NCBI GenBank assembly: GCA_963712735.1
Contig: CAVQIZ010000002.1
Coordinates: forward strand, 186,791-250,790
Source of the DNA: an uncultured Chloroflexia bacterium
Lineage (GTDB): Bacteria > Chloroflexota > Limnocylindria > Limnocylindrales > CSP1-4
Reading direction: 5' to 3'
Length of the DNA stretch: 64,000 nt
The position numbers were made by a program, and so were the translations under genes. Below, piece after piece: positions 4,374 through 63,819 of the stretch. Positions within the stretch are counted from its first letter, which is position 1, and each line of letters opens with the position of its first letter. The notes under the pieces were generated by a model, which saw only the letters and a list, made by a program, of their open reading frames with translations, searched no databases and was not told the DNA's origin.

Positions 4374-5251
4374 ATGAGGATGCAGCGATACGGCGTCGCC
4401 TCGAATGCGGGCCCCCTGCGCGACGTTGCCATGCGACGACCCGGCGCGATCCTCTCGGCCGACGCGGATGACTGGCACTACTCCAAGACCATCGACGCTG
4501 CGGCACTGCGCCTGCAGTTCGACGCCTTCGCCACGCTGCTGCAGGCGCATGGCACACGCATCCACTGGCTGGACAGCGACGACGGGGATGGCCTGGCCGA
4601 TTCCGATCTTCACCTACGACCCGTCCTTCGTCATTCCCGCGGGGGCGGTGATCCTGCGACCGGGAAAGCCGGCGCGCTCCCGCGAGGTCGAGCTGCATCG
4701 TCGCTTCTACGCCGATCGCATGCCCATCGTCGGTGCCATCGAGGCACCGGGCACGGTGGAGGGCGGAGACTGCTTCTGGCTGGACGAGACGACGCTGGCG
4801 GTGGGTCGCGGGTTCCGCACGAACATCGCCGGCATCGAGCAGCTGAGGGCCATCGTCGGCAGCTGTCGGCATCAGCGTGGAAGCCTACGACCTGCCGGTC
4901 CACCGCGGGCCCGACGCGTGCCTGCATCTGCTATCGCTGGTCAACCCGCTCGACAGGGACCTCTCGCTGGTGCACGCGCCGCTGATGCCGGTGGCGCTCT
5001 ACCAGCGCATGCTCGAGATGGGCTACCGCCTGCTGGACGTCCCGGCTGCAGAGTTCGAGGCCAGCGGTGGGTTGAGCCTCAATGTGCTGGCCACCGCCCC
5101 ACGACGCTGCCTGGCCATCGACGGCTTCCCCGACACCGCGGCGATGATGCGCGCCGCCGGATGCGAGGTGACCACCTTCGAGGCCGATGAGCTCTGCCTG
5201 CCCTGCGAAGGCGGACCCACCTGTCTCACTCGGCCGCTGTGGCGTGAGTGA
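4374..5251 (+). CDS. dimethylarginine dimethylaminohydrolase-family (guanidino-modifying enzyme superfamily) protein, reading frame broken twice
   Basis: Protein continues across three frames: MQRYGVASNAGPLRDVAMRRPGAIL... / ...FTYDPSFVIPAGAVILRPGK...GGDCFWLDETTLAVGRGFRTNIAGIEQLRAIV / ...EAYDLPVHRGPDACLHLLSLVNP...CLPCEGGPTCLTRPL; frameshifts near 4600 and 4865. Confidence 0.6.
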
Positions 5252-5987
5252 CGAGCCGGGCGGCCGCGGACGCCTCTACGCCGGCACCAGCGGCTTCGCC
5301 TACCCGGGTTGGGTGCCACGCTTCTACGCGCCCGGCAAGGCCAGCCGCAAGCCGCTCGTCGCCTACGCGGCGCGGCTGCCGGCGGTGGAATTGCACAACA
5401 CGTTCTTTCGCCGTCCTAACGAACAGCAGATCGAGAAGTGGCTGCGCGAGACCGGCCCCGCGTTCCGCTTCTGCCCCAAGGCCCAGCGAGCGACGTCGTG
5501 GCGGGCATGGTCGGAGCAGGACCCGAGCGCGTCGATCCGCTGGCTCACCGACGCGCTCGCCGGCTTCGGTGAGCGCCTGGGGGCCGTGCTTCTGTCGCTG
5601 CGCGCCACTGTCGAGCGGGACGACGCGGCGCTGGAACGGCTGCTGACCGCCTGGCCCTCCGACGTGCCGTTGGCGCTGGAGCTACTGCATCCGAGCTGGC
5701 AGGCCGAGGGGGTGCAGGAGCGGGCCGCGGCACACGGCGTCACCCTGGTCGCGACCGACCTGGAGGGCCGGGTCGAACCCGAGCTGCAGCCGGGGCCGCT
5801 CGTGTACCTGCGCCTCCGCCGCAGCGTCTACGAAGCCGCGGACCTGGAGCGGTGGGCACAGCGGCTGACACCGTACCTGCGCGCTGGCACCGACGCGTAC
5901 GTGTTCTTCCGCCACGATGAGGACGGGACCATGGCGCTCAACGCGGAGGCGCTGCTGGCCCGAGCCGGCGATGCCGGAAGGTCGTGA
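5244..5987 (+). CDS. DUF72 family protein (YecE-like)
   Basis: GTG start 5244; LYAGTSGFAYPGW...FYAPG...LVAYAARLPAVELHNTFFRRP is the DUF72 N-terminal signature. Confidence 0.7.
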   Translation: MSDEPGGRGRLYAGTSGFAYPGWVPRFYAPGKASRKPLVAYAARLPAVELHNTFFRRPNEQQIEKWLRETGPAFRFCPKAQRATSWRAWSEQDPSASIRWLTDALAGFGERLGAVLLSLRATVERDDAALERLLTAWPSDVPLALELLHPSWQAEGVQERAAAHGVTLVATDLEGRVEPELQPGPLVYLRLRRSVYEAADLERWAQRLTPYLRAGTDAYVFFRHDEDGTMALNAEALLARAGDAGRS

Positions 5988-6054
5988 GCGCGAACGGCGT
6001 AGCATGGGTGGCCGTCCCCCGAACGCCGAAGTCCACCGTCACAGAGGAGGCACC

Positions 6055-6504
6055 ATGGCCAAGCCCAAGAAGTCGGTCGCCAAGGACCTGCAGGCCACGC
6101 TCGTGGAGTTGATCGACCTGTCGTTGCTCGGCAAGCAGGCCCACTGGAATGTGGTCGGCTCGCACTTCCGCTCCATCCACCTGCAGCTGGATGAGATCGT
6201 CGATATCGCGCGCCTTTCCTCGGACCGCGTCGCCGAGCGGCTGGCCACCATCGGTGCTTCGCCCGATGGCCGCGCCGAGACGGTCGCCACCAGCAGCGAG
6301 CTGGCGCCCTTCCCGGAGGGCTTCGTCGCGGGCACTGACACGGTCAAGCTCGTCACCGCCGCCATGGAGACGATCTCCGGCCGCATGCGCGAGCGCATCC
6401 TGCGCATCGGTGACGACGACCCGGTCAGCCAGGACATCCTCATCGGGACGAGTGACGAGATCGAGAAGGCGGCCTGGATGCTGCGCGCCCAGCTCGAGCT
6501 GTAG
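6055..6504 (+). CDS. dps: Dps-family DNA-protection / ferritin-like protein
   Basis: ATG 6055 preceded by AGAGGAGG; MAKPKKSVAKDLQATLVELIDLSLLGKQAHWNVVGSHFRSIHLQLDE is the Dps ferroxidase region. Confidence 0.85.
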   Translation: MAKPKKSVAKDLQATLVELIDLSLLGKQAHWNVVGSHFRSIHLQLDEIVDIARLSSDRVAERLATIGASPDGRAETVATSSELAPFPEGFVAGTDTVKLVTAAMETISGRMRERILRIGDDDPVSQDILIGTSDEIEKAAWMLRAQLEL

Positions 6505-6552
6505 CGCAGCCTCAGCTGTCGCGCAGCTGGCGCCTGAGGCGCCGAGACGAAC

Positions 6553-8577: not shown

Positions 8578-9565
8578 ATGAGCACGCCCGCAGCCACCGC
8601 TCCGGACGCCGTCTCGGAAGACACGCGCCTGATGCTTCGGGCCGCGCAGCTCTACTACCACGGCGAGCTCACGCAGGACGCCATCGGCAAGCGCCTCGGC
8701 GTGAGCCGCTTCAAGGTCGGCCGACTGCTGGAGCGTGCCCTGCGCGAGGAGGCGGTGAGGATCGAGATCGTCCACCCGGCGTCACGACTGGTGGCCCTGG
8801 AAGACGCGCTCCGCGAACGCTTCGGCCTCGGCGAAGCCATCGTGGTGGACGTGCCCGCCGGAGGCGACCAGGCCGAAGACGAGCAGCTGGCGCGTGAGCG
8901 CGTCGCGGCCGCGGCCGCCGACCACCTGGCATTCGTCCGGCCGCAGGGCGTCATCGGCGTCTCCTGGGGTCGCACCATGCTGGAGCTGGCAGCCCGCCTG
9001 CAGCCGGGCTGGACGCAGGCCAGCCAGATCGTGCAGCTCAACGGCGCCATCTCGCGCTCGGCGCAGCCCACCCGCTACCAGGACGTGGTGGAGCGCTTCG
9101 GCAGCACCACCGGTGCCGGCATCCAGCTGATGCCGGCGCCGGCGATCGTCGGCAGCGCCGAGCTGCGGCGCGCGCTGGAGGCCGACCCGGCCGTCAGCCA
9201 GCCGTTGAAGGCCGCCCGCCGCGCCCCCACGGCCATCTTCGGCATGGGCGTCATGGGGCCCGAGAGCGTGCACGTGGCCTCCGGCTATCTCGATGCCAAG
9301 GCCCTCCGGCGGCTCGAGCGGGCCGGCGCCGTGGGCGACGTGCTGGGCCGCTTCATCACCATCGAGGGGCGCATCGCCCTGCGCGGTCTCGATGCACGCA
9401 CCGTCGGGCATGCCCCTCGACGAGCTGCAGGGCAAGCGGCTCACGCTGGGCCTGGCTGCCGGTCCCGGGCGCGGACCCATCGCCCTGGCCGCGCTGCGCG
9501 CAGGCTGCATGAACACCTTCGTGACTGACGAAGCCACGGCCGAGTGGGTGCTCGAGCATGACTGA
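8578..9565 (+). CDS. SorC/DeoR-family sugar-binding transcriptional regulator (frameshift near 9410)
   Basis: HTH LTQDAIGKRLGVSRFKVGRLLERA plus SorC sugar-binding domain (GVSWGRT...GMGV...); C-terminal 45 aa (MPLDELQGKRLTLGLAAGPGRG...[15 protein letters not shown]) lie in the +1 frame. Confidence 0.75.
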
Positions 9566-10136
9566 CCAGCGCAGCCCTTCGGCCGATGAGGTGCGGGCGC
9601 TGGTGCGCCGCATCGTCGATCAGACGCTCGAGACGAGCGCGCAGCCAACGCCAGCCGCACGACGGCCGGGTGGTGGTGGCCATCGCCGGCGACCACGGAG
9701 GCTGGCGCATGAAGGACGCCATCGGCAGCTGGCTCACGGAGCACGGCTACGGGGTGCGGGACTGCGGCACGGATAGTGACGAGGCCGTGGACTACCCCGA
9801 CTACGCGCTGGCGGTGGCCCGGCTGGTGGCCGATGGTTCGTGTCGCTGGGGCATCGTCGTCGACGGCGCCGGTATCGGCTCGGCCATGGCGGCCACCAAG
9901 GTGCCCGGGGTGCGTGCCGCCAACTGCCACGACCTCTCCTCGGCGCGCAACAGCCGCGAGCACAACTACGCCAACGTCCTCACCCTGGGCGCCGGCTTCC
10001 TGGGCACGGCCCTGGCCCTCCAGATCGTGGAGACCTGGCTGGCGACCGACTGGGGTGCCGAACGACACGGCGCCCGCGTAGACAAGATCACCGCCATCGA
10101 GCGCTCCTACAGCGGCGCCAGCGAGGGAAAGGACCG

Positions 10137-12405: not shown

Positions 12406-13861
12406 ATGGACGAACGCGAGATCGCGCAGATCATCGAACGGGTGCGGGGCCGCCTGGCGGCGGCCGACGGGGCACGCCCCGGGGCCGGCATGCAGGCCGC
12501 CGCCGAGGTGGCGCAGGCCGCCGAGGCGGAGCTGGGCGACGGCATCCACGCGAGCGTCGATGACGCCGTTGCCGCCGCCACGCGCGCGTTCCGTGCCTTC
12601 GGCGACAGCGGCCTCGGCACCCGCAAGGCCGTCATCGAGGCGGTCCGCGCCTCGATGCTGGCTCACGCGGAGCAGCTGGCCCGCATGGCCCATCTCGAGA
12701 CCGGCATCGGCCGCTACGAGGACAAGGTCGTCAAGAACCGGCTGGTGACCACCAAGGCGCCGGGGCCAGAGGACCTCGAGGTCGCAGGCCGTCAGTGGCG
12801 ACCAGGGCATGATGGTCACCGAGTGGGCGCCCTTCGGGGTCGTGGGCGCCATCAGCCCGGTGACCAACCCCACCTCGACCGTCATCAACAACACCATCAG
12901 CATCGTCTCGGCCGGGAACGCGGTGGTCTTCAACGCACACCCATCGGCGCGAGCCTGCTCGGCAGAGACCATCCGGCTCATCAACCGCGCCATCGTCGGC
13001 GCCGGCGGACCGCCCGACCTGGTCACCGGCGTCGCCGTCCCCACCATCGACACGGCGCGCGCGCTGATGAACCACCCCGGCGTGCGCGTGCTGCTCGTCA
13101 CCGGCGGCCCCGGCGTGGTGCGGGAGGCCCTGCGCACGGACAAGCGCGCCATCACCGCCGGTCCCGGCAATCCGCCCGCGGTGGTGGACCAGACCGCCGA
13201 CATCGAGCGCGCCGCGGCCGACATCGTGCGCGGCGCGTCGTTCGACAACAACCTCGTCTGTATCGACGAGAAGGTCGTGCTGGCGGTCGACAGCATCGCC
13301 GACCGCCTGCTGCGAGCCATGAGCCAGCGGGGCGCCTATCTGCTCAAGGAGCACGAGCTGCGACGCCTGGAGCGCGTCATCTTCAAGGAGCTGGGCCCGC
13401 CCGGCAAGCCCGGCGTGATGAACCCGGCCTGGATCGGCAAGGACGCCTCGAAGATCCTGGCCGAGATCGGCGTGCAGGCAGAACCCGAGCCGCGGCTGCT
13501 GGTGGCCGACGTGCCGCGCGAGCACAGCCTCGCCTGGACCGAGCAGATGATGCCGGTGCTGCCGGTCGTGCGCGTGGGCAACGTCGAGACGGCCATCGAG
13601 CTGGCGGTGCGCATGGAGCACGGCTTCCACCACACGGCCTCCATCCACTCCACCAACGTCGATGCCATCACGCGCATGGCCCGCGCCATGAACTGCAGCA
13701 TCTTCGTGGCCAACGGGCCCAATCTCGCGGGCCTCGGGGCCGGTGGCGAGGGCTTCACCTCGTTCTCCATCGCCTCGCCCACCGGCGACGGCATGACGCG
13801 GCCGCGGACGTTCTCGCGCGAGCGACGGGTCACCGTCGTGGGCGCGCTGAGGATCGTGTAG
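12406..13861 (+). CDS. CoA-acylating aldehyde dehydrogenase (PduP/EutE-like) with N-terminal encapsulation-peptide-like helix; frameshift ~12786
   Basis: [17 protein letters not shown]... then, in the +1 frame from ~12790: [50 protein letters not shown]...[11 protein letters not shown]...(catalytic Cys region); 1-nt insertion after LEV. Confidence 0.85.
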
Positions 13862-14475
13862 TGCCGATCGCCCGCGGCCGACTCCCCTCCCGCCATCGAG
13901 CCGGCGCTGGGGCTGCTCGAGCTGGAGACGGTGCCGGCCGGCATCGCCGCCGGCGACGCCATGGCCAAGCGCGCACCCATCGAGCTCATCCGGGCCGGTA
14001 CCGTGCACCCGGGCAAGTTCCTCGTGCTCGTGGCCGGCGCGGTGGCCGATGTCGAGGAGGCCCTCGCAGGCCGGCCGCGAGAGCGGCGGCCTGGCCGTGC
14101 GCGACGTGGTCTTCCTGCCCCACATCCACGCCGACGTGGTGGCGGGCGTGCGCGGACGGCGCCTGGCGGCCGGGACCGAGGCGCTGGGCATCATCGAGAC
14201 GGCCACCATCCCGGCCATCATCCGTGCCGCCGATGCGGGGGTGAAGGGCGCGCAGGTGCAGGCTGCTGGAGCTGCGGCTGGCGGATGACCTCGGCGGCAA
14301 GGGCTACCTGCTCTTCGACGGCGCCGTCTCCGAGGTGGAGGCGGCCGTCGAGCTGGGCCTGGCCGCGGTGGGCGAGGCGCGCGGCCTCAGCGCACGCGTC
14401 ATCGCGCAGCTGCACGCCGAGATGGCGGAGAACCTCGCCGCCGACGCCCGCTTCGCCGCGCGAGTCGGGGCGTAG
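13861..14475 (+). CDS. tandem-BMC-domain shell protein (PduT-like BMC-T), frame broken 2-3 times
   Basis: Domain 1 ALGLLELETVPAGIAAGDAMAKRAPIELIRAGTVHPGKFLVLVAGAVADVEEAL (frame 2), linker/second-domain start in frame 0 (EALGIIETATIPAIIRAADAGVKGAQVQ), C-terminus LLELRLADDLGGKGYLLFDGAVSEVEAAVELG... in frame 1 ending TAG 14475; likely start GTG 13861 overlapping aldDH stop needs one more shift. Confidence 0.65.
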
Positions 14476-14479
14476 TCCG

Positions 14480-14771
14480 ATGCAGCTCGCACGCGTGACC
14501 GGCACGGTCGTCGCCAGCACCAAGGTGGCGGGGCTCGAGGGCGTCAAGCTGCTCATCATCCAGCCGCTCGACCGCGCCCTGCGGCCCGGCCGGCAAGCCG
14601 GTCGTGGCAGCTGACGCGGTGCACATGGCCGGCCCCGGTGAGCTGGTCTACTTCGTGGCCTCGCGGGAGGCGGCACAGGCGCTCGAGGAGACGTTCGTGC
14701 CGGTGGACCACGCCATCGTCGGCATCGTCGACGCGGTCACGGAGCTGCCCGCTGCGGAGGACGGCGCGTGA
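14480..14771 (+). CDS. BMC-P vertex protein (EutN/PduN family), copy 2, frameshift ~14590
   Basis: [36 protein letters not shown] then (frame 0) GKPVVAADAVHMAGPGELVYFVASREAAQALEETFVPVDHAIVGIVDAV...; stop TGA 14769..14771. Confidence 0.75.
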
Positions 14772-15043
14772 AGCTCGCGCGGGTGGTGGGCAACGTCGTC
14801 TCCACCATCAACACGCCGGACTTCGAGGACCGCACCCTGCTGCTGTGCGACCTGCTCGGCCCGGACGGTGCTCCGGCCGGCGGCTACCAGATCGCGGTCG
14901 ACAACATCGGCGCGGGCGCCGGCGAGATGGTGCTGCTGCTCGACGAGGGCAACGGCGCGCGCCAGGTGCTGAACGCCCCGGGCGCGCCCATCCGCACGGT
15001 CGTCATCGGCATCGTCGACGAGGTCATCGAAGACGCGCGCTGA
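14768..15043 (+). CDS. BMC-P vertex protein (EutN/PduN family), copy 3
   Basis: GTGA overlap with previous gene; MKLARVVGNVVSTINTPDFEDRTLLLCDLL...YQIAVDNIGAGAGEMVLLLDEGNGARQVLN...VVIGIVDEV. Confidence 0.85.
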   Translation: MKLARVVGNVVSTINTPDFEDRTLLLCDLLGPDGAPAGGYQIAVDNIGAGAGEMVLLLDEGNGARQVLNAPGAPIRTVVIGIVDEVIEDAR

Positions 15044-17872
15044 GCCACGCAAGGCTGCGCCGGGCAGCGATGCCTGGCGGCGGGGCAGACGGCTGCGCGC
15101 GGGTGGCAGCACCAAGGTGATCAGGACGCGGCCGGCTCCTCGGACGCGCCGGCGGAACTTGGGCACCTCGTCGACGGGGATCTTCCAGACGCGCTTGCGG
15201 ATCTCGGCGATCACCAGCAGCGACATGCCGACGACGACGCAGAGGACCCACTGGTCGAACGTCAGCCCCACCGTGCCAAGGAGACGCTGCAGCAGGCCGA
15301 GCTCGGTGGCGAGGACCGTGATGAGCACAGAGGCGACGGTGGCAAGGATGAATGTCCGGTCAGCCAGGACCTCGTGGCTCAGCGCCGAGCGCGTCTCGTC
15401 CTTGGTCGAGATGGAGATCGCGATGTTGAACACGGCGAAGGTCACGAAGCCCATCGTCCGCCCCACGTCGTCACCGAACTGGCGGGCGCCCCAGTCGATG
15501 ACGAGCAGGGTGCCGGCGCCGATGATCAGCCCCACCAGCGCCAGCCACGTCAGCATCTGCCGGCCCAGGATGGGCACGCCCGCCGGCCTCGGCTTGCGAT
15601 CCATCAGGCCCGGCGTGGGCTCGGCGAAGCCCAGCCCGAACGCCTGGCTCAGCTGCACGGAGAAGTTGATGAAGATCGTCTGTGCCGGCAGGAACGGCAC
15701 GCCGCTCGCGATCCAGAAGATCGACGAGCCGAGGAAGGTGGCGATGAAGCCGAAGAGCCCGGCCATCTGGAAGCGGATGTAGCGCTGCAGGTTGTCGTAG
15801 ATGCTGCGGCCGAGGCGAACCGCCTTGACGATGGTGCTGAAGTTGTCGTCGGTCAGGATCATCACCGCGGCCTCCTTGGAGACCTCGGTCCCGGTGATGC
15901 CCATGGCGACGCCGATGTCGGCGGTCTTGAGCGCAGGCGCGTCGTTGACGCCGTCACCGGTCATGGCCACGACGCGCTTCTCGCGCTGCAGCAGCTGCAC
16001 GAGGCGAACCTTGTCCTCTGGCGTGACCCTGGCGATGATGCCGATGTCGTCGAGCTCGGCGAGCGCCTGCTCGTCGGACATGGCCCGGAACTCGGCGCCG
16101 CTGATGGCTCGCCCCCGCAGACCCAGGTCACGACCGATGGCCTCGGCCGTGACCACGTGGTCCCCGGTGATCATGCGTACCGCGATCCCGGCACGATGAG
16201 CCGTGGCGACGGCGTCGCGCACCTCGGGACGGGGCGGATCCATGATGCCGACGAGGGCCATCAGCGTGAGACCCTCGATCTGCGCCAGCAGGTCGCCAGC
16301 GGGATCGAAGTCCTTGGGCGCGATGTCCTTGCGCGCGGTGGCGAGGACACGCAGACCGTGTGAGGCCAGCCGGTCGTTCTCGGCCATGTAGCGCTCGCGG
16401 ACGTCGTCGTTCACCGTCACGGGATCGTCCTCACGCGCGAAGACGCTGGCGGCACGCGCCAGCAGCTGGTCGGGCGCACCCTTGACGTAGGCGCGGACGA
16501 CCTCCTTGCCGCGCTCGTCGGTCATGTGGTGGAAGGTCGCCATCAGCTTGTAGGCGGCGTCGAAGGGCAGCACCGCAGCGCGCGGATAGGCCTCGCGCGT
16601 GACCTCGGTGCTGAGACCACCCTTGGCCGCCAGGACGACCAGGGCGCCCTCGGTGGGGTCGCCCACCAGCTCGCCGTTGCGCGCGACCGCATCGGCTGCC
16701 AGGACCATGGGCATCAGGAACTGCTCGAGGTCCTCATCGACCCGACCACCCTCGTGGAGGATCTGGCCCTCGAAGCCGTAGCCGCTGCCGGTGATCTCGT
16801 AGCGGCGGCCGACGGTCGCCATCTCGACGGCGGTCATCTGGTTGAGCGTGAGGGTGCCGGTCTTGTCCGAGTTGATGGCGGAGGTCGCTCCCAGCGTCTC
16901 GACCGAGCGCAGGTTCTTGACGATGGCACCAGCCTCGGCCAGCGTCCGCGTACCCAGGGAGAGGATGGTCGTGACGACCGCCGGCAGGCCCGTGGGGATG
17001 GCGGCGACGGCGAAGGCGATGGCGGCCACGAACAGCTCGTCGAAGGGCTCGCCGCGCAGCAGGCCGAGCAGCATCGAGGCGATGAGCGCGGCCCCGGCGA
17101 TGGCGATGAGCTGGCGCGTGAGACGAGCCAGCTGGAGCGTGAGCGGGGTGACGGTCGCGTCCGCCTGCTCGAGCATCTCGGAGATGTGGCCCACCTCGGT
17201 CGCCATGCCGGTGGCCGTGACCACGAACGAACCCGAGCCACGCGTGGCGCTGGTGTTCATGAAGACCATGTTGGTGCGGTCGCCCAGGGTGGTCTCGGGG
17301 TCCTCCATGGCGGCGATGCCCTTGGGCACCGGGACCGACTCGCCCGTCAGGGGCGACTCGTCCACCTCCAGTGTCGCGGCGACCAGCAGGCGTCCGTCAG
17401 CCGGGATCAGGTCGCCGGCTTCGACCGAGACGACGTCGCCCGGCACCAGCTGCTCGGCCGGCAGCTCCACGAGGTCGCCATCGCGCAGGACGCGCGCCTT
17501 GACGATCATCATCTCCTGGAGCGCCGCGACGGCGGCGGCGGCCTTGCCCTCCTGCGCCATGCCCATGGCGGCGTTCAGCAGCGTCAGGCCGATCAGCAGG
17601 ACGCCGGTGCTGACCTGCTCGACCGGCCAGATGCTGAAGATGCCCGCGACCAGCAGCACGATCTGCATCAGGTCCTGGTACTGCCGCAGGAAGGCCTGCC
17701 AGCCTGGCTCCTTCTTGCCCTCGCTGAACTTGTTGGGGCCGTACTGCGTGCGCCGGGCGGTGACGTCAGCGCTGGACAGGCCGGACCTGGCATCGACGCC
17801 GGCCTGGGCGAGGGCCTCCTCGGGCGTTAGCAGGAACGGAGCACGCTCGCTCGAGCTGGATGTGGCAGTCAC
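15044..17872 (-). CDS. P-type cation-transporting ATPase (Ca2+/Mg2+-type, P2); true 3' end uncertain (~15150-15180)
   Basis: MTATSSSSERAPFLLTPEEALAQAGV...; DKTGTLT phosphorylation motif, TGDGVNDAPAL, MITGD present; conserved core ends ...VIAEIRKRVWK near 15182 but the ORF reads on without stop to 14648, antisense to BMC-P genes. Confidence 0.8.
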
Positions 17873-18913: not shown

Positions 18914-18928
18914 GAGTGATACCCCGCG

Positions 18929-22777: not shown

Positions 22778-22799
22778 CGCTTCCTCCGGGCTCCCGACC

Positions 22800-49675: not shown

Positions 49676-50811
49676 AGGTTGGCCCCCGGGCGGTTGCGCA
49701 GGATGAGCACCTCGGCCGCGCGCACCGCGAGGTAGGCCGACGATGCCGACGAGCGAGGCGATGAGGATGGTGGCCCACAGCTTCTCCGGGCCGGTGATGT
49801 ACTGCTGGCTGAAGCTGATGATGGCCTTGCCCAGGCCCTCGCCCACTCCGCCCGGACCCTCGCCGATGATGGCGCCGATGATGGCCCACGTCGCCGCCAC
49901 CTTGAGCGCCGTGAAGAGGAACGGCACGGAGGCCGGGAAGCGCAGCTTGCGGTAGATGTCCCAGCGCGAGGCACCGTAGGAGCGCATGAGCTCCATCGCC
50001 CGCGGGTCAGGCGAGCGCAGGCCGCGCAGCTGCGAGATGGTGACCGGGAAGAACGTGAGGTAGGTGGCCACGATGACCACCGCCGTCGGGCCCAGGCCGA
50101 CGGCCAGCGCGATGACCGGCGCCAGCGCCACGATGGGGATGGTCTGCGAGGCCACCACGTAGGGCATGAACGTCCGCTCGGAGCGGATGGAGTGGACGAA
50201 GATCGACGCGATGCCGATGCCGATGACGCGCGCCCAGCACGAAGCCGATGAACGCCTGCCGCATGGTGAACAGGGCCGCTCCGAGAAGGAACTCGAGCAG
50301 GGTCTGGTCCGAGCCACGTCGGAACGGCTCGAGGAGCTCGAACAGGATGTCCCAGATGTGCGGCAGCTGGCGGTCGCTCAGCTGCAGCACCCGGAAGGGC
50401 GGGTCGTGGAAGATGTCGACCCCCGTGCCAAGGACGTTCTCGAAGCGCCAGGGCGTGCCGCCGAACCACTTGAGGGCCTCCCAGATGAAGCCGGCGATGA
50501 GGAAGAACGCGCCCAGTGCCAGGGCGGTGCGAGCGAAGCGCCCCAGCGGCGTCTGCCAGCGGCCGACGATAGCCCTCGGCCCCGCCCACCGTGTGGATGG
50601 CGACGTCGTCGGCCGCGTCGCCGATGTCGAGCGCCACCTCGCCTGCCTCAGGGTCGGCGAGCGGATCGCGCCGGCGGTCGGCGGGTGACCAGGCGGAGGT
50701 GTTCGGCCCCAGCGCGCGGTAGGGCATGGGCACGCGCCGGCCGTCATCGGACTGCCCCCGGGCTGCCGGCGGGTTCGGTGGCGTGGCCTGCTCGGGGCGC
50801 TCGTCGCTCAT
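49672..50811 (-). CDS. ABC transporter permease (NitT/TauT family), ~3 frame switches
   Basis: ...GRWQTPLGRFARTALALGAFFLIAGFIWEALKWF... / ...IPIVALAPVIALAVGLGPTAVVIVATYLTFFPVTISQLRGLRSPDPRAMELMRSYGASRWDIYRKLRFPASVPFLFTALKVAATWAIIGAIIGE / ...AYLAVRAAEVLILRNRPGANL. Confidence 0.65.
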
Positions 50812-50850
50812 CGGTGGCTCGTGTCGGCCGTCTACCGGTCGGGTCCGGCG

Positions 50851-52185
50851 CTAGGCGCGCACACCCTTGTCGGCGAGGTCCAGGGCGGCGTCGATGATCT
50901 CGAAGCCCTCGGCCATCTCCTCCTCGCTGATGGTCAGCGGCGGGTTGCAGTGGATGGTGTTGAAGCGGATGAAGGTGAAGAGGCCGTGCTCACGGAAGTA
51001 CGCTCCGATGGCCTTCATCTCGTCCGACAGCCCCCCGTAGGGCGCCATCGGCTCGTAGGTCTCGCGGTCCCGCACGAGCTCGAGGATGCCGAACAGGCCG
51101 ATGTTGCGATGCGCACCCACGCTGGGATGCTTCTCCTTGAGGCGCACCATGTGGTCGCGCATGACCTCGCCCATGCGCCTGGCTCGCTCGATGAGGCCAT
51201 CCTGCTCGTAGACGTCGATGACCGCAAGGGCCGTGGCGCAGCCCATGGGATGGCTGTTGTAGGTCAGGCCGCCGCCGAAGGCCTTGTCCTCGAAGGCGTC
51301 GGCGATCTGCCGGCGCATGGCCACCGCGCCAAGGGGCAGGTACGACGAGGTCAGGCCCTTGGCCATGGTGAGGAGATCGGGCACGACGCCCCAGTGATCG
51401 ACGGCGAACCAGGCGCCGGTGCGGCCGAACCCGCTCATGACCTCGTCGGCGATGAGCATGATGCCGTGCTTGTCGCAGATCTCGCGTACGCCCTGCAGGT
51501 AGCCGTCGGGCGGGATGAGGATGCCGTTGGTGCCCACGACCGGCTCGAGGATGAAGCCGGCGATGGTGTGGCCACCCTCGAACATGATCACTTCCTCGAG
51601 GTCGGCGAGGGCCTGCTCGACCGGCTCCGGCTCCGGCCGGCCATAGCGATGCGGGTCGGGCGCACGGTAGATGCCCGCGACGCCGGTCTCGCTGGCCCAG
51701 CGGCGCGGATCGCCGGTGGCGACCATGACCTGGCCGGTGGCGCCGTGATACGAGCGATAGCGGGCCAGGATCTTGTGCCGGCCGGTGTACTGCCGCGCCA
51801 GCTTGATGGCATTCTCGTTGGCTTCGGCACCGCCGTTGGTGAAGAACACGACGTCGAGGTCGCCCGGCGTGAGCTGCGCCAGCTTCTGGCCCAGGCGGGC
51901 ACGGGGCTCGTGCGCCATGAAGGGGTTGGCGTAGGCCAGCTTCTGCGCCTGCGCCGCGATGGCGTCGATGACACGCTGGTCGCCGTGGCCGATGTTGACC
52001 GACATCAGCTGGCTGTTCCAGTCGAGATACCGCTTGCCGTCGGTGGAGTAGAAGTACGAGCCCTTGGCCGTCTCGACGGGGATGGGATCAGCCGCGCTCT
52101 GGGCGACCCACTCGAACAGCGTGTGCTTCTTCGACAGCGCCACGATCTCCTCGGCGCTCATGACCCCCCGGGTCTCCTCGACCAT
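50851..52185 (-). CDS. class-III (omega-) aminotransferase, PLP-dependent
   Basis: Start MVEETRGVMSAEEIV (52185); ...ILEPVVGTNGILIPPDGYLQGVREICDKHGIMLIADEVMSGFGRTGAWFAVDHWGVVPDLLTMAKGLTSSYLPLGAV. Confidence 0.85.
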   Translation of the reverse strand: MVEETRGVMSAEEIVALSKKHTLFEWVAQSAADPIPVETAKGSYFYSTDGKRYLDWNSQLMSVNIGHGDQRVIDAIAAQAQKLAYANPFMAHEPRARLGQKLAQLTPGDLDVVFFTNGGAEANENAIKLARQYTGRHKILARYRSYHGATGQVMVATGDPRRWASETGVAGIYRAPDPHRYGRPEPEPVEQALADLEEVIMFEGGHTIAGFILEPVVGTNGILIPPDGYLQGVREICDKHGIMLIADEVMSGFGRTGAWFAVDHWGVVPDLLTMAKGLTSSYLPLGAVAMRRQIADAFEDKAFGGGLTYNSHPMGCATALAVIDVYEQDGLIERARRMGEVMRDHMVRLKEKHPSVGAHRNIGLFGILELVRDRETYEPMAPYGGLSDEMKAIGAYFREHGLFTFIRFNTIHCNPPLTISEEEMAEGFEIIDAALDLADKGVRA

Positions 52186-52448
52186 GTCGTCCACCTTCCG
52201 TTCCGCGGCGCGGGGGTCCCCCGGGCGGATCCGGTCCCGGGGTCGGCCTCTGCGCCGCTGCGTCCGCCGGAGTGTGCCACGGATGCCGCGCGGGTTGGGC
52301 CCCGAAGGCCGCACGTCGGTGCCAGCAGCCGGAAGTGAGACTGAGGCGTAACCGCGGGGCATCGTCTCCGCGACCCGGGCCAGGTCGAGTGACCAGGCGA
52401 GGCGGCGATGGCGCCCCCTGGAGTCGAACGGCCCGTGAACGCCGGCGG

Positions 52449-55512: not shown

Positions 55513-56346
55513 CTACGCGGGCGTCACGGCACGGCCGAAGACGAACGCACTGAGCGTGACGTCGAGCTCGACCGAGGCGAACCCGGCCTGCAGGACGGCC
55601 GTCCGCAGGATGTCCGGTGCCAGCGGCTGCAGGGGACCCGCGGGACCGGCGATCGGCCGCGCCGCGGGGCCACCCTTGGCCTCCACGAACAGGAACGAAC
55701 CGCCCGGCTTGAGCCAGCCACGTACGACCGGGAGGGCAGCGGAGACGCCGGCCGCCCCCAGCAGGTAGGCGGCGAAGACGGTGTCGACCGACGTGTCCGG
55801 CGTGGCCAGCGGATCACGCTCATGCAGGTGGGCCAGGAGCCCGTGGACCATCAGGCGCGTGCGGGCAGCATCGAGCGACGCGGCGTCGGTGTCGTAGAGC
55901 CACAGCTCCCCCTTCTCGGCGAGGAGCGCCGTCCACCAGCCCATGCCCGCGCCGAGCTCGACGATGACGCCGCCGCTGACGCTCTCGTCCAGCCAGCCGG
56001 TGACCTGCTCGAGCTCCATCGACCAGGGTCCGTCGTGGATGGGCCCCCGCGAGAACCCACCTCGGCGCAGGTACCAGTCCTCCCAGTCCCCGGGCGCCAC
56101 CGGGAGCGCCAAGTCGGTTGTCGGCGACCCCGGCACGCTCGGCGCGGCAGCCGTCGCTGTCGCCGGCGCTGCGGCGGCAGCACGGTCGCGCAGGGCGGCA
56201 CGCAGGCGCATCCGCAGGAACTCGTTGCCATCCGCCTTGCCCAGGCACTCAGGGCACAGCCCGGCCCAGCCCTCCAGGTCCTCGGCAGCGCGCACCTGCC
56301 ACGGCCGGCCGCACCAGAGGCAGTCGAAGGCACGTCGGAAGACCAT
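55513..56346 (-). CDS. class I SAM-dependent methyltransferase with N-terminal CxxC...CxxC zinc ribbon
   Basis: MVFRRAFDCLWCGRPW...GLCPECLGK then ...GGVIVELGAGMGWWTALLAE...LWLYDTD (motif I / post-I). Confidence 0.6.
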   Translation of the reverse strand: MVFRRAFDCLWCGRPWQVRAAEDLEGWAGLCPECLGKADGNEFLRMRLRAALRDRAAAAAPATATAAAPSVPGSPTTDLALPVAPGDWEDWYLRRGGFSRGPIHDGPWSMELEQVTGWLDESVSGGVIVELGAGMGWWTALLAEKGELWLYDTDAASLDAARTRLMVHGLLAHLHERDPLATPDTSVDTVFAAYLLGAAGVSAALPVVRGWLKPGGSFLFVEAKGGPAARPIAGPAGPLQPLAPDILRTAVLQAGFASVELDVTLSAFVFGRAVTPA

Positions 56347-56435
56347 CGCCGCAACCTCAGCCGGCTCGGCGGTCGGACAGGTCGCGGCCGACGAGACGCA
56401 TCGGCGCGAGGGGCAGCCAGCTCCCGACCGGGCCA

Positions 56436-57255
56436 TCACCGGCGAAGACGTCGGGGGCGATGAGCTCGGCCAGGACCACGATGCCCTCGATCACCCGCGG
56501 GCCCGGATAGGCGAGACAGGCCGCGACCGTCGACGGCGAAGAACTCGCCCTCCCGCACCGCTTCAAGCTCATCGAACCAGGCCGGCAGGGGCACAGCGTC
56601 GAGGGCTCGGGCGGCGCCCGCCGCGTCGGCGTCACGCAGCGCGAGGACGAGCACCTGCGGCTCCACCTCGCGGACCTGCTCCCAGTCGGTCAGCGCCGAC
56701 GCTTCGCCCTCCCGCCCGAGCAGCTCCCATCCGCCGGCGCGGCGAACCATCTCCGGCACCCATCGCCCACAGCTCGTGGGTGGGTCGAGGCCTTCCAGCA
56801 CGACGACCCGTCGTGTCGCGTGCGCCGGCACGCGCTGCTCCACTTCCGCCAGGCGCTCACGCAGCAGCTCGACGAGGCCGACCGCCTCGTACTCCGATTC
56901 GGTGTAGGCACCGACGGTGGAGATGCTGTTGAAGATGCCCTCCAGTGTCTGCGGTGCCAACGCCACGAGCGTGACGTCCCGCTTCAGGCCACCGACCGCG
57001 GCGCTGATCTCGGCATAGTCCACGAGCGGCTCGTCGTCGGAGCCGTCGGCCAGCACGAGGTCGGGCTCCAGGGCCGCCAGCAGGTTCGCATCGAGGCGCC
57101 GACCCATCACATCGGGGCCACGCCGCGTCACGATGGGCACGTCCATCACCTCAGGCGGGTCCTCGCAGGCGTGGCTGCGGCCGACCAGCTCGTCACCCAG
57201 GCCAAGGGCAGTAGACGATCTGGGTGGCTGAGGGCGTGAGGGAGACGATGCGCAT
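56436..57255 (-). CDS. BtuF-like cobalamin-binding / class-III periplasmic-binding-protein-fold protein without signal peptide (frameshift right after start)
   Basis: MRIVSLTPSAT then other frame ALGLGDELVGRSHACEDPPEVMDVPIVT...LEPDLVLADGSDDEPL; PBP type III fold, no signal peptide. Confidence 0.55.
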
Positions 57256-57336: not shown

Positions 57337-58264
57337 ATGCCATCGCCAGCGGTCGACGTCCGCAACGTCTGGAAGCGCTACGGTGACACCGATGTCGTGA
57401 TCGACCTCTCCTTCGATCTGCAGCCGGGCGAGGTGCTCGGCTTCCTGGGGCCCAACGGCTCGGGCAAGACCACCACGATGCGCATGATCCTCGACATCGT
57501 GCGACCGGCTCGGGGCGAGATCGAGGTCTTCGGAAACCCGCCCGGCGTCGAGCACCAGGATCGGGTGGGCTACCTGCCGGAAGACCGCGGCCTCTACCGA
57601 GACGTCAAGATCATCGACACGCTGACCTACTTCGGAGCCCTGCGTGGGATGTCGCAGTCGGCGGCGCGCAAGCGGGCGATGTCGCTGCTCACCGAGATGG
57701 GGCTCGACGACGCTGCCGACAAGAAGGCCGCCGAGCTGTCCCGCGGCATGCACCAGAAGGCGCAGCTCATCGCCACCATCCTCAACGACCCCGACCTGCT
57801 CATCATCGACGAACCCTTCCAGGGCCTCGACCCGGTCAATGCCGACATGCTCAAGGGCGTGGTCCGGCAGCAGCGCGACCGTGGGGCGGCGGTGATCATG
57901 AGCACCCACGACATGGGCGACGCGCAGACGCTCTGCGACCGCATCCTGCTCATCGACAAGGGCACGCGTCTGCTCTACGGCACCGTGGCGAGGGTGCGCG
58001 ACGCGTTCAGCGATGGTGCCGTCCAGGTCAGCGGCCCGGACATCCCCACCAGTGCTGCCGAGCTGCGCCAGCGTCACCGACGTCAGCGTCGTCGACGGCG
58101 CGGTGCGCTACCTCATCCGCGACGGAGCCTCGCCTCAGGACCTCTTCCGCGAGCTCGCCGCCAGCGGGGCCCACGTCGACCAGTTCGCGGTGCAGGCACC
58201 CAGCCTCGACGAGATCTTCATCCGCACGGTCGCCGGCGACCCACGCGCCCAGGCCGTCCGGTGA
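57337..58264 (+). CDS. ABC transporter ATP-binding protein (ABC-2/NatA-like), frameshift ~58070
   Basis: ...GEVLGFLGPNGSGKTTTMRMIL...LSRGMHQKAQLIATILNDPDLLIIDEPFQGLDP...; C-terminal ~65 aa in another frame. Confidence 0.8.
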
Positions 58265-59548
58265 GCACGACCCATCCGTCCCGCTCGCAGCCGCCCGAGG
58301 CCCGCTCCGGACGGCTGCGCCTGACGTCGCTCGTCGCGCGCCGCGAGTACCTGCGCACGGTGCGACGGCGTGGCTACATGTTCGGCACCATCCTGCTGCC
58401 GCTGGGCATCGGCTTCCTCATGACCATCTCGATGTTCTTCTCCACCAGCGGCTTCTCCTCTGACGGCGAGGCCAGCGGCACCATCGTCATCGTCAACGCG
58501 TCCGACGTGCCCATCAGCGACTTCAGCACCGACTCGGCGACGCTGCGAACGCTGAGCGAACCGGAGGCGGCCGCACAGCTCGAGGCCGGCTCCATCAGCG
58601 AGTACTACCAGATCCCGGCCGACTTCCGCAGCAGCGGCGAGGTGACGCGCATCGAACCAGCCGCGGGGCTGAACATCTCGCGCCTGGAGGGCCAGCAGAA
58701 CAACGAGGGCCTGCTGCGCTATGTCATCCGCGACGCGCTGCTGCGCGAAGCCGGCGTGTCGAGCCAGGACGCCGCGCGCATCCTGCAGGGCGTCACGGTC
58801 ACCGCCGTCACCACCGAGGGCGACGAGGTCTCCGCCGCCGATCGTCGCCGCCGGCATCGCCATCCCCATCGTCTTCGTGGCCATCTTCATGATCAGCATC
58901 TTCATGACCAGCGGCTACCTGCTGCAGTCGGTGACCGAGGAGAAGGAGAACCGCGTCGTCGAGATCGTGCTGAGCTCCGTTCCGGCCACGCCGCTGATGG
59001 GCGGCAAGATCCTGGGCCTCGGTGGTGCCGGCTTGACGCAGGTCGCCATCTGGACCGTCTCTGCGCTGATCGCCGTGCCGCTGCTGTCGAGCCAGGTCCC
59101 GGATATCGGCCCCATCAGCCTCGACCCCACCGTGCTGCTCCTGGCGCTCACCTACTTCATCCTGGGCTACCTCGCCTACGGCGCTATCTTCGCGGCCATC
59201 GGCGCCATCGCCCCGGGCAACCGTGAGGCGCAGCAGTACTCGGGGTTCCTGGGCTTCGCGGCGGCCATCCCGCTCATCGTCTCGTCGCTGTTCCTGACGG
59301 ACCTGACATCACCGCTGGTGGTGGCACTCTCGATATTCCCGCTCACCGCGCCCACCTCGATGCTGCTGGTGCTCGGGCTGTCCGAGTCCATCCCGTGGAC
59401 GCTGGTGGGCGCGTCACTGGTGAGCCTGTCGCTGTTCGCCCTGTTCGCCACCTGGGCCTCGGCACGCATCTTCCGCGCGACCGTGCTGCTGTACGGCGTG
59501 CGACCCTCGGTGCGCCAGCTGATGGACGCGGTCCGCTCCCCGCGCTGA
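58261..59548 (+). CDS. ABC-2 family transporter permease (frameshift ~58845)
   Basis: GTGA overlap with ATPase; N-terminal TM + large extracytoplasmic loop, then 5 TM ...IPIVFVAIFMISIFMTSGYLLQSVTEEKENRVVEIVLSSVPATPLM... Confidence 0.7.
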
Positions 59549-60147: not shown

Positions 60148-60682
60148 TCACGGGCTGATGGTGATGTCGCGCAGGTCGACCGCCCCGACCATGCCCTTCT
60201 CGATGTGGCCCGGGATGTGGCAGAGGATGGCCAGGTACTCGTCGCTGGGCACGTGGTAGTCGATGCGTCGTCTGCTCGCCCGAGCCGAGGAGCACGCGCA
60301 GGCCACCGGTGCTGGGTGGAACGCTGGCAGGTGGCGCGGTGGCGAACAGGCTGGGTGGCGTCGCAGCGGCGTCGGCCCGATGCCAGGCCTCCTGCACGTC
60401 GGCGTCCCCGATGACGAAGTCGTGCACCTCCAGCCCGGCGTTGAAGATGGTGAAGCGCACGGTCTCTCCGGGCACCAGCACGACCGGGGTGGGGTCGAAG
60501 CGATAGTCGCGCATGATGACGGTCACGTCGCGGGGAGCCGCCGCCGTGCCAGGCTCGGCGATGGTGACGTCCGGTGGCGGCTCGCCGGGGCGCTGCATGC
60601 CGATGAGCACCAGCGTGACGGCCACGACAGCGAAGACGATGACCACGACGACGGGCGCGCGGGAGATGGACTGCTGTGGCAC
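60148..60682 (-). CDS. membrane-anchored cupredoxin (type-1 blue copper) protein, frameshift ~60250
   Basis: N-terminal TM VVVVIVFAVVAVTLVLI; ...MRDYRFDPTPVVLVPGETVRFTIFNAGLEVHDF; C-terminus in other frame ...YLAILCHIPGHIEKGMVGAV (Cys-His-Met copper ligands). Confidence 0.65.
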
Positions 60683-60760
60683 CGTCGCAGGGTAGCCGAC
60701 CGCACGGAGAGTGGCTTCACATGGCCAAGCGGGGGCATCCCGAGCGACGGACCGACGGCG

Positions 60761-61869: not shown

Positions 61870-61981
61870 GCGCGCGAGTGTACGCGACGACCCGATCCGG
61901 GCTCGTCCGCGTATCCTGCCCCTTGTGACTGACAGACCCAAGCACTCTCGCTCCCGGTCCACGGACGATCGCAAGCTGCTC

Positions 61982-62665
61982 ATGCAGCGGCCGTTCGCCG
62001 ACCCCTCCTTCCTCGAGTCCGACGCCTGGCGCGCGCTGCGCATCATGGGTGAGTTCATCGACGGCTTCGATGCGCTCGCGCGGCTGGGGCCGGCGGTCAG
62101 CATCTTCGGCTCCGCGCGGACCAAGCCCGACGATCCCATGTTCAGGCAGGCCGAGACGCTCGCGGCCCGGCTCTCCGAGCAGGGCTTCACCGTCATCACC
62201 GGCGGCGGCCCGGGCATCATGACGGCCGCCAACAAGGGCGCCAAGGAAGCCGACGGCGTGTCCGTCGGCCTGGCCATCGACCTGCCGCGCGAGACCGGCC
62301 TCAATCCCTACGTCGACCTGCCCGCCTACTTCCGCTACTTCTTCGTGCGCAAGACGATGTTCGTCAAGTACGCCCAGGCCTTCGTCATCTTCCCCGGCGG
62401 CTTCGGCACCTTCGACGAGCTGTTCGAGTCGCTGACGCTGGTTCAGACCGACAAGATCGACCACTTCCCCATCATCCTCTTCGACAGCAGCTACTGGGCG
62501 GGGCTCATCGACTGGCTGCGAGCGCAGGTGGTCGCGCGCGGCAACGTCTCGGAGCCGGACCTCGAGCTCTTCCGTGTCAGCGACGACATCGAGGAGGTGG
62601 TTGACATCATCGCCGAGTCCTATCGGGCCCGCGAGGCCAACCACGTGAGCGAGGAGGGGCGCTGA
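61982..62665 (+). CDS. LOG-family (TIGR00730) Rossmann-fold nucleotide-binding protein / cytokinin riboside 5'-monophosphate phosphoribohydrolase-like; alternative starts 61925 (GTG) or 61868
   Basis: ...GPAVSIFGSARTKPDDPMFRQAETLAARLSEQGFTVITGGGPGIMTAANKGAKEADGVSVGL...PGGFGTFDELFESLTLVQTDKI. Confidence 0.75.
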   Translation: MQRPFADPSFLESDAWRALRIMGEFIDGFDALARLGPAVSIFGSARTKPDDPMFRQAETLAARLSEQGFTVITGGGPGIMTAANKGAKEADGVSVGLAIDLPRETGLNPYVDLPAYFRYFFVRKTMFVKYAQAFVIFPGGFGTFDELFESLTLVQTDKIDHFPIILFDSSYWAGLIDWLRAQVVARGNVSEPDLELFRVSDDIEEVVDIIAESYRAREANHVSEEGR

Positions 62666-63106
62666 TGCGCATCGCCGTCGGGCACCGATCACGCCGGTCT
62701 GCCGCTCAAGCAGGTCATCGTGGCGTGGCTCGCCGAGCACGGCTACGAGGTCGTGGACTTCGGCGTGGACACGCCCGACCAGGTGGACTACCCCGACTAC
62801 GTCGCCCCCGCGGCACGTGCGGTGGCCGCCGGCGACTGCCGCTTCGGCATCGTCTTCGGCGGCAGCGGCACCGGGGAGCAGATCGTGGCCAACAAGATCG
62901 ACGGCATCCGCTGCTGCCAGGCCACCGAGCCGGTCACGGCGGCGCTGTCGCGCCAGCACAACGACGCCAACATGCTCTCGATGGGTGCGCGCATCGTGGG
63001 CACCCAGGTCGCCATCGGCTGCGTGGAGGCGTTCCTGGCGGCGCAGTTCGAGGGTGGCCGCCACGTGGCGCGGGTCGAGAAGATCATGGCCCTGGAGTCC
63101 GCGTAG
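62665..63106 (+). CDS. rpiB: ribose-5-phosphate isomerase B, second copy without N-terminal extension (frameshift ~62685)
   Basis: MRIAVG then other frame DHAGLPLKQVIVAWLAEHGYEVVDFGVDTPDQVDYPDY...GIVFGGSGTGEQIVANKIDGIRCCQATE. Confidence 0.75.
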
Positions 63107-63819
63107 GAGCCGTCTACGGTGCCTTCTCGCCTGGCTGCCTGTCGGGCACGATGGGCCTTGGTCTTCTCTAGGTACTCGATGGGATCGGGCATGACGCAGG
63201 CGGTCTGACCGGGGTCGAACTCGACGTGGCCCAGGGCGGAAGCGGTCCTGCGCGCCGCGGCCTCCAGCTCATCGCTGCGCAGCCCGATGCCCGTGATGGC
63301 GTTGCTGGCCGACCGGCGCGTCCAGTTGCCGTACTCCTCCATGCGCTCCGCGATGGTGTCGAGCTGTGCCTCGAAGTAGCCGCTCGGCACCTCCTCGTCG
63401 CCGAGGGCCACGAGGTTCATCAGGTCCCAGCCGGCCTGTGCCGTGCGGTCGCGACGCGAGCCGATCCAGCGCTCCGCTCGCTCACGTCGGCCGGGCACGC
63501 GCGAGGCGAGGGACGACAACGAAGGTATCGACCAGGAAGTAGCTGTCGATGTCCTCGAGCCAGGCATCCAGTCCGTCCTCCGAGACCGACGCGGATCGGC
63601 CACCATGCAGGCGAGCAGCCGCGCATCGGCGTTGCCGCTGGCCCACAGCTGGTCGGCGAGGGCCTGGTCGGTCCCGATGCGCCGGGCCAGCGGCCGCAGG
63701 TCGCCGAACTTGACACCGAAGAGCGGCTCGGACGCTCCGTGGCGCAGGTACGTCCTGCGTGTCTGCTCGCTGCCGCTGGCTTCCAGCGCGGCCATGGCCG
63801 CGTCGTACGTCAGCGTCAT
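63107..63819 (-). CDS. AlkD-like DNA alkylation repair protein (HEAT-repeat glycosylase family), at least 2 frame switches; 3' end approximate
   Basis: MTLTYDAAMAALEASGSEQTRRTYLRHGASEPLFGVKFGDLRPLARRIGTDQALADQLWASGNADARLLACMVADP ... VSEDGLDAWLEDIDSYFLVDTFVV ... ERWIGSRRDRTAQAGWDLMNLV... Confidence 0.55.

Follow-up and report, generated by a model that had tools for sequence, protein, structure and literature searches.

Dense private single-base insertions that split intact genes in 64 kb of a Limnocylindria metagenome contig are a consensus artefact

The closest described counterparts of the DNA analysed here are long-read-only Nanopore assemblies, in which full-length-protein tests of the IDEEL type show that 1-bp indels fragment genes with a severity that varies between contigs. 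Such fragmentation is not seen in short-read assemblies of the same species and is a recognised problem of low-coverage bins; the literature on it stresses homopolymer indels. Apparent frameshifts made by the consensus in intact genes, together with raised local variant density, have also been described in the collapsed PacBio assembly of a diploid eukaryote, Trypanosoma brucei Lister 427 (PMC8445201). Many frameshift-interrupted genes are likewise a feature of pseudogene-rich genomes that result from reductive evolution, such as that of Mycobacterium leprae, where true decay comes with nonsense codons, deletions, a relaxed ratio of nonsynonymous to synonymous substitution rates (dN/dS) and lesions that are shared by related strains. 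We analysed a 64-kb stretch of ~70% GC from an uncultured soil bacterium of the Chloroflexota (contig CAVQIZ010000002.1; the whole stretch is hereafter referred to as the window), in which the reading frames of many genes are interrupted by single-base lesions.

The window resembles the Nanopore assemblies in all of these respects except the type of error, since its errors are almost exclusively insertions that avoid homopolymers, favor purines on the plus strand of the contig and have substitution-type errors nearby. It resembles the T. brucei case in its apparent frameshifts and local variant density; however, the mismatches that neighbor its lesions are unlike real alleles, so that strain collapse is at most a contributor. 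None of the hallmarks of decay known from M. leprae was found in the window. We are highly confident that the window represents a normal and functional part of the chromosome of a member of Candidatus Limnocylindria/Limnocylindrales, and that its deposited consensus carries ~60–80 spurious single-base insertions. The frameshifts are an assembly or consensus artefact, not a feature of the genome, and the genes are intact in the organism.

Plain lists of open reading frames (ORFs) are useless in a genome of 70% GC, and the window contains 383 ORFs of at least 60 residues. Frames were assigned with a codon model trained on confident ORFs and a seven-state Viterbi path (six frames plus non-coding), and a switch was counted when the frame changed on the same strand with no stop codon within 18 nt. 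The path through the window consists of 157 segments with 70 such switches, corresponding to 1.17 per coding kb, and the shifts are nearly all +1. The identical detector gave 0.145 switches per kb (maximum 0.33) on a control set of 31 short-read loci of the same clade (MEGAHIT, SPAdes and JGI assemblies), and 0.52 per kb (range 0.05–2.16) on 26 long-read loci with Flye-style names, a difference with a Mann-Whitney p of 6e-6. The defect therefore tracks the assembly type. The rate in the window is eight times the short-read baseline, which predicts about nine switches instead of the 70 observed, and lies in the bad tail of the long-read loci. Thus, the dense frame switching that an earlier note on this DNA had described is real.

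The switches occur in clusters (dispersion index 1.93, chi-square p=0.0014), with dense patches at 21.6–30.3 and 38.3–45.5 kb and clean ones at 0–4.4, 15.2–17.9 and 30.9–34.9 kb. The first 4.6 kb are free of switches (Poisson P=0.0065) and the longest switch-free stretch extends from 29734 to 35443, in agreement with the earlier remark that the damage is patchy and that the first ~4 kb are clean. Roughly 30–35 genes are affected in total, about half of the genes in the window, where ~30 had been proposed. The numbers of extra bases per gene equal or exceed those proposed: five in ornithine carbamoyltransferase (OTC), three in carbamate kinase, at least six in polyphosphate kinase 1 (PPK1), eight in glutamyl-tRNA synthetase (GluRS), four in asparaginase and five in the PfkB-family kinase.

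Proteins stitched across the switches have zero internal stops and each gives one full-length, colinear Pfam match, so that the description of every fragment as unblemished protein sequence also holds. The matches include OTC (OTCace_N 1–148/148 and OTCace 2–156/157), GluRS (tRNA-synt_1c 3–314/314 and Anticodon_2 2–140/141), PPK1 (all four PPK1 domains, in order), arginine deiminase (gene 21613..22802; ADI 2–361/377), carbamate kinase (AA_kinase 3–232/234), asparaginase (Asparaginase_II 1–291/322), the PfkB kinase (PfkB 12–296/302), a CYTH-CHAD protein (CHAD 2–225/228) and a SorC-type regulator (Sugar-bind 3–257/257). Among the long ORFs, Pfam identified ordinary bacterial proteins, namely a P-type ATPase, an S9 peptidase, citrate synthase, an EamA transporter, a histidine kinase, a class-III aminotransferase and PstS. 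The 64-kb window yielded no tRNA genes.

Related sequences were obtained in two ways. A histidine-kinase scan of species-representative genomes returned only Chloroflexota metagenome-assembled genomes (MAGs), mostly of Candidatus Limnocylindria/Limnocylindrales, and no genome of the same species (best match 82% amino acid identity). Many of these MAGs are named 'MFDxxxxx.bin' and have Flye-style contig_N names; the scan was the source of the platform control set and of L002, a syntenic short-read MAG. Exact-protein look-ups and protein searches identified five contigs of the same species at 92–96.5% nucleotide identity, three of which are short-read. Two of them, L001 (49668–64000 of the window) and L082 (9272–27908), belong to ENA assembly ERZ25039603 and are of the Flye style. 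The short-read contigs are L083 (JGI, 11546–18796), L084 (MEGAHIT k141, 10748–21897) and L085 (JGI), which carries GluRS at 92.3% nucleotide identity to the window. The same-species nucleotide references together span ~35 of 60 kb, with 4.4–9.3, 28–31.7 and 46–49.7 kb lying outside them.

The earlier note had suggested a comparison with close relatives. Every window-extra base that was tested is absent from L082, L083, L084, L085 or L001, and zero frameshifts are shared. The single bases that the window has at 12783/4, 13866, 14067, 14258, 14584 and 18199–202 are missing from each of L082, L083 and L084. The private indels in the four-way alignment are six insertions and no deletions in the window and two insertions in L082, with none in the two short-read contigs. 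The window and L001 each have frameshifts of their own, such that an extra base in one breaks the frame of that one, while the other stays in frame. Orthologues at 92–96% nucleotide identity are in a single frame, and intact calls in L082 include carbamate kinase (321 residues), arginine deiminase (409), Ppx-GppA (308) and aldehyde dehydrogenase (484). Intact orthologues from L002 (80–95% amino acid identity) are split by tblastn over several frames of the window: asparaginase falls into at least five pieces, and GluRS, PfkB, the short-chain dehydrogenase and PhoU are also split. Similarly, PPK1 of L003 matches three window frames. The nucleotide alignment with L002 (82–86% identity) is noisy, with many compensating gap pairs, and unpaired extra bases alone were used from it.

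Compared to L085, GluRS (39462..40947, minus strand) contains eight private 1-bp insertions (39464, 39616, 39645, 39680, 39845, 40572, 40713 and 40790) and no deletions, and these sites recur in the comparison with L002. The stitched protein is 94% identical to P0139, a member of a family that is uniformly 500 residues in length. Every independent assembly of the species has GluRS and the other genes in intact form and, as described below, the genes are under purifying selection, which supports the earlier view that these are consensus errors and not pseudogenes.

Lesions were polarised by which sequence keeps its frame. In the window, this resulted in 31 reference-by-site insertion calls (~21 unique sites) compared to one deletion (63592); the long-read references have nine insertions and two deletions. 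The errors are so dense that the strict polarisation filter left many sites 'short' or 'ambiguous', and the short-read references and the Viterbi switches were relied on for these instead. On the plus strand of the contig, the 62 extra bases that could be located to the nucleotide consist of 29 G, 14 A, 14 C and 5 T (43 of 62 purines, p=0.003). The bias is alike in genes of both strands and therefore follows the strand of the contig rather than that of the gene. The private insertions of L001, read on the plus strand of the window, are also mostly G; by our reading this is also the native plus strand of the L001 contig. Since the two contigs share their orientation, an effect of the contig strand is inseparable from one of the replication strand.

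The surroundings of the extra bases bear on a mixed-strain consensus, a subtype of artefact in which reads from several strains were collapsed and misalignment at variant sites caused both alleles, or an extra base, to be emitted. Soil metagenomes hold several close strains, and relatives at 92–96.5% identity occur in other samples. Mismatch density is twice the background within 5–10 nt of the extra bases, the site beside 12783 varies among the references (G/A), and an extra base stands beside its transition partner at 33 of 62 sites (23.7 expected, p=0.007). Additionally, the collapsed diploid long-read assembly mentioned above gained INDEL errors beside allelic variants (PMC8445201). However, the mismatches near extra bases are distributed 15/14/14 over the three codon positions, compared to 169/143/629 elsewhere (p=8e-6), whereas 67% of the genuine strain single-nucleotide polymorphisms (SNPs) in these genes are at third positions. 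With such an even spread, the mismatches look like additional errors and not real variants, which places the insertions in small patches of garbled consensus rather than at ordinary synonymous strain SNPs. Furthermore, the adjacent base is variable at only one or two of the six sites with three references. We therefore argue that the main cause is a low-quality local consensus, and consider strain collapse an unlikely explanation. A specific version, in which each insertion represents two strain alleles in tandem at a synonymous SNP, was rejected on account of the same codon-position-blind neighbors and is retained solely as a possible contributor.

The earlier note had attributed the frameshifts to homopolymer-length miscalls in short C/G runs, produced by long-read or flow-based chemistry. 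Such miscalls, known from 454, Ion Torrent and classic Nanopore sequencing, are the best-known consensus error of long reads in the literature, nearly any site is close to a short G/C run at 70% GC, and 13 of the 62 extra bases do extend a run to a length of two or three. The remaining 49 (79%) differ from both neighbors, as would only 49% of randomly inserted bases (p=2e-6); runs of four or more contain none of the extra bases (4.7% expected), and none of the 36 homopolymers of five or more in the compared regions carries a window-extra base. Homopolymer miscalls would also mix insertions and deletions, in contrast to the ~21 unique insertions and single deletion of the window. Most of the positions that had been named do match real extra bases (12783/4 for 12786; 23335 and 23471 for 23300–23500; 27404 and 27457 for 27400–27950), but the motifs are not at the positions of the extra bases. 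The run GGTGGTGGTGG in rpiB is located at 9669, whereas the extra base is at 9653; the G6/C6 run of the YHS gene (61846–61851) aligns with L001 without a gap; no C-run follows the ATG of the ABC ATPase at 57337; and GCGCGCC, proposed for ppx, occurs at more than 30 places in the window and is thus uninformative. The errors avoid homopolymers, which refutes the homopolymer mechanism at the 62 mapped sites; as an explanation of the window as a whole, this mechanism is very improbable. The part of the suggestion that invoked long reads or a low-coverage MAG fits the data, and flow-based chemistry does not.

The frameshifts could also be real, with the extra bases physically present in the DNA, either through massive recent pseudogenisation in a mutator with a +1 insertion signature or because the DNA derives from dead or decaying cells. 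The indel-to-substitution ratio relative to L001 (43 gaps, 398 mismatches) is near neutral expectations, and the evidence comes from assemblies, not from reads. The substitutions argue against this. Between the window and L001, dN/dS is 0.197 over 4,450 codons, with 70, 52 and 235 mismatches at codon positions 1, 2 and 3, and 75% of the 110 window-private substitutions in the four-way alignment are at third positions, which is not the signature of relaxed selection. In the same pair, the density of 1-bp indels is alike in coding (2.52 per kb) and non-coding sequence (2.36 per kb), and most of the longer indels within coding sequence have lengths divisible by three (3, 9, 12 and 27). Thus, purifying selection acts on genes whose 1-bp lesions take no account of coding. 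Real mutations would give this picture only after an independent and very recent pseudogenisation of both lineages, whereas errors do so by nature. Real lesions would, moreover, have struck an aminoacyl-tRNA synthetase eight times and about half of all genes without leaving a single nonsense codon in the stitched genes. The long-read contig of the sister strain has an independent set of frameshifts and the short-read assemblies have none, and the base bias follows the contig strand, not the gene strand. A spectrum made up of insertions is the reverse of the deletional bias of bacterial pseudogenes that Mira, Ochman and Moran reportedly described in 2001. Real frameshifts are therefore regarded as extremely unlikely. 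Programmed recoding, in the form of genome-wide +1 ribosomal frameshifting or transcriptional slippage that restores the frame, would suit shifts that are nearly all +1 and fragments that are each good protein sequence, but it is practically dismissed because programmed sites are conserved by definition, these shifts are not conserved in orthologues at 92–96% identity, and the 51 oriented coding sites have neither a shared motif (maximum 0.17 bit, compared to a random-site 95th percentile of 0.21) nor a slippery run or heptamer within 9 nt.

Spurious insertion during consensus building would proceed as follows. The consensus, which carries roughly one extra base per kb, was probably built from few and/or heterogeneous, error-prone long reads, and the patches in which the extra bases lie may reflect local depth or read quality. 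Each extra base moves the true frame on by one, so that gene callers see fragments. A Nanopore-only metagenome assembly with Flye and Medaka at low local depth appears to be the most likely route. The MFD MAGs, which dominate among the relatives, were assembled from Nanopore reads only (Flye 2.9.2 with --meta --nano-hq, then a single Medaka round), and according to their authors those of lower coverage contain errors associated with Nanopore sequencing (PMC12313526). The group of the MFD authors also found that R10.4 bins below ~40x still require short-read polishing (PMC9262707). The protein P0122, which is identical to the P-type ATPase ORF of the window, is encoded on a 1,175,487-bp contig held by NCBI and ENA, a MAG contig of megabase scale.

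Several points weigh against this account. Its technical side (platform and depth) derives from comparison and was not seen in reads, and the contig is tied to a Nanopore project solely through its relatives and through its size and record sources. In most descriptions, residual Nanopore errors are tied to homopolymers and tend to be deletions, and the insertion-only, homopolymer-avoiding profile of the window is not the textbook Nanopore signature; the candidate steps are the basecaller, the Flye consensus, Medaka at low depth and strain mixing. The sites within 4.4–9.3, 28–31.7 and 46–49.7 kb were placed by the frame map, and 28–31.7 kb is the only one of these regions for which L003 and L004 add support at the protein level. 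Finally, in the comparison with L082, 1-bp indels are denser in non-coding than in coding sequence, at 14 per kb over only 713 nt. The extra bases may reveal an under-described error mode of low-depth Flye/Medaka assemblies, consisting of systematic, homopolymer-avoiding and purine-biased single-base insertions.

Dense private frameshifts are also present in other Flye-named contigs of the clade. L001 has ~15 in 18 kb, none in common with the window, and the switch rates of L016, L058 and L055 are 2.16, 1.35 and 1.21 per kb, respectively; L017 and L057 are also affected. Other contigs with the same naming scheme are nearly clean, such as L032 (0.05 per kb) and L082 (0.11 per kb). The problem is therefore specific to individual contigs or MAGs, and widespread in this public set.

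The biological interest of these lesions is low, but they are a useful caution for work with gene calls from this contig or comparable long-read-only MAGs. In the window, about half of the calls are truncated or split, and such errors would distort counts of pseudogenes, the completeness of pathways, the clustering of protein families and analyses of selection. With a profile that is insertion-only, patchy and homopolymer-avoiding, homopolymer-aware correction would not repair the sequence; repair requires short-read or reference-guided frameshift correction. If an under-described Flye/Medaka insertion mode does exist, it would inflate pseudogene counts across public catalogues of long-read MAGs.

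Truncated and extended products are already public, P0122 being an example. The P-type ATPase ORF (14648..17872, minus strand) has 1074 residues, compared to 920 in three relatives. Its body is clean, but it is 11 nt short near 15157, in the variable Ala/Gly-rich C-terminal tail, as a result of which the stop codon is missed and a spurious tail of 155 residues is added. The tail (14648–15165) runs antisense through the convergent neighboring EutN gene, and the false product is present in public protein collections.

The remaining lesions are described in their order along the window. The glycosyltransferase, citrate synthase, isochorismatase-like and EamA genes (1..4379) serve as a clean control, with no switch by Viterbi and Pfam. 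The next gene (4380..5251, plus strand), of the amidinotransferase/ADI superfamily, is in three frames, with +1 shifts near 4605 and 4863; these positions are approximate (Viterbi), the stitched protein matches Pfam ADI, and the gene lies outside the same-species references. In the plus-strand genes that follow, extra bases were identified in the SorC-type sugar-binding regulator (8605..9562; G at 9408, from the L082 alignment), in RpiB (LacAB_rpiB; 9563..10134; A at 9653 in GCC[A]GCC, with an intact orthologue of 193 residues in L082) and in the microcompartment aldehyde dehydrogenase (12406..13861; 12783/12784 in GGT[C]GCA, intact with 484 residues in L082, L083 and L084). The tandem-domain shell protein (13861..14475) has extra bases at 13866, 14067 and 14258, and the EutN/CcmL vertex protein (14459..14765) has an extra G at 14584. 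All four are absent from L082, L083 and L084, and the orthologue of the shell protein is intact with 203 residues.

On the minus strand, the Ppx-GppA phosphatase (17959..18916; orthologue intact with 308–318 residues) has an extra base at 18199–18202 amid window-private mismatches, and arginine deiminase (21613..22802) has an extra G at 22103 that is absent from the intact 409-residue orthologue in L082. OTC (22803..23809, minus strand) is in five frame segments with five extra bases (23046, 23205, 23210, 23335 and 23471). Its −1 frame step at ~23177 arises because the insertions at 23205 and 23210 are five bases apart, and the gap at 23175 is an error of L082 itself. Carbamate kinase (23930..24837, minus strand) has extra bases at 23927, 24419 and 24730, with the intact 321-residue orthologue in L082.

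The plus-strand GBBH-like_N/DUF971 gene (25969..26287) has extra bases at 26066, 26079, 26153 and 26174, and its orthologue in L082 is intact with 128 residues. PPK1 (26477..28546, plus strand) has extra bases at 26613, 26791, 26803, 26844 and 27404, a 2-nt extra at 27457 and a switch near 27924. The CYTH-CHAD gene (28600..30256, plus strand) has approximately five switches by Viterbi (near 28788, 28861, 28896, 29327 and 29734, positions approximate), and its orthologues from L003 and L004 match in four frame pieces. The pstS-pstC-pstA-pstB operon (30922..34866, plus strand), inside the longest switch-free stretch, is a second clean control, with one frame per gene and single high-scoring segment pairs for L002 orthologues of 90–93% identity. 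PhoU and the low-molecular-weight (LMW) phosphatase/ArsC-like gene (34919..36132, plus strand) have extra bases at ~35452 and ~35956, respectively, based on split tblastn matches and unpaired extras relative to L002.

On the minus strand, a small SnoaL-like gene (39063..39464) has an extra base at ~39329 in the comparison with L002, the DnaJ-domain protein (40948..41643) has one extra base each at 41148 and 41180, two at 41164 and a frame switch at ~41478, and L-asparaginase II (41670..43028; L002 orthologue intact with 412 residues) has extra bases at 41774, 42138, 42474 and 42694. On the plus strand, the PfkB-family sugar kinase (43646..44650) has extra bases at 43784, 43871, 44016, 44161 and 44446, and the short-chain dehydrogenase (44654..45452) has an extra C at 44820.

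In the region covered by L001, the minus-strand ABC permease and class-III aminotransferase (49678..52197) contain an extra G at 49739 and 50228 (permease) and an extra A at 50571 (aminotransferase), with L001 in frame. Compared to L001, the gene block 54532–57214 has lesions within 56335..56515 on the minus strand (an extra T at 56335 and an extra G at 56515), the plus-strand ABC ATPase and ABC-2 permease (57337..59536) have an extra G at 58067 and 58844, respectively, and a membrane/hypothetical gene (60157..60694, minus strand) has an extra C at 60266. The private shifts of L001 within the ABC ATPase and ABC-2 permease genes are at different positions (57419, 57898, 58389 and 58766). The second RpiB copy (62665..63097, plus strand) has an extra C at 62679, between MRIAV and GTDHAG, and the DNA-alkylation-repair-like gene (63098..63830, minus strand) has an extra C at 63517 and the one missing base at 63592, which is the sole polarised deletion of the window.

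A bacterial microcompartment (BMC) locus is located at 8605–15028, its genes being named from Pfam marks on the syntenic L082. It encodes the SorC-type regulator, RpiB, a DeoC aldolase, a CsoS1D_N-type BMC-T protein, BMC-H, three EutN/CcmL proteins, the tandem-domain BMC protein and the aldehyde dehydrogenase. We take this locus, found here in a member of the Limnocylindria, to resemble the sugar-phosphate-utilising (SPU) type of BMC. The two RpiB (LacAB_rpiB) paralogues, one within this locus (9563–10134) and one beside the YHS-domain gene (62665–63097), carry one spurious insertion each.

The window also contains an unusually complete phosphate/polyphosphate neighborhood (17959–18916 and 25045–39062), consisting of Ppx-GppA, PPK2, PPK1, the CYTH-CHAD protein, pstSCAB, PhoU, the LMW phosphatase/ArsC-like gene and a PhoR/PhoB-type two-component pair. 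The operon of the arginine deiminase pathway (ADI-OTC-CK, CK being carbamate kinase; 21613–24837) is situated between the two parts. The intergenic region between the S9 peptidase and arginine deiminase genes (21124–21471) contains three short tandem-repeat arrays with periods of 16, 17 and 21 and 2.4–3.7 copies. Repeat copy number and sequence differ among sister strains here, making this region a dense patch of real indels.

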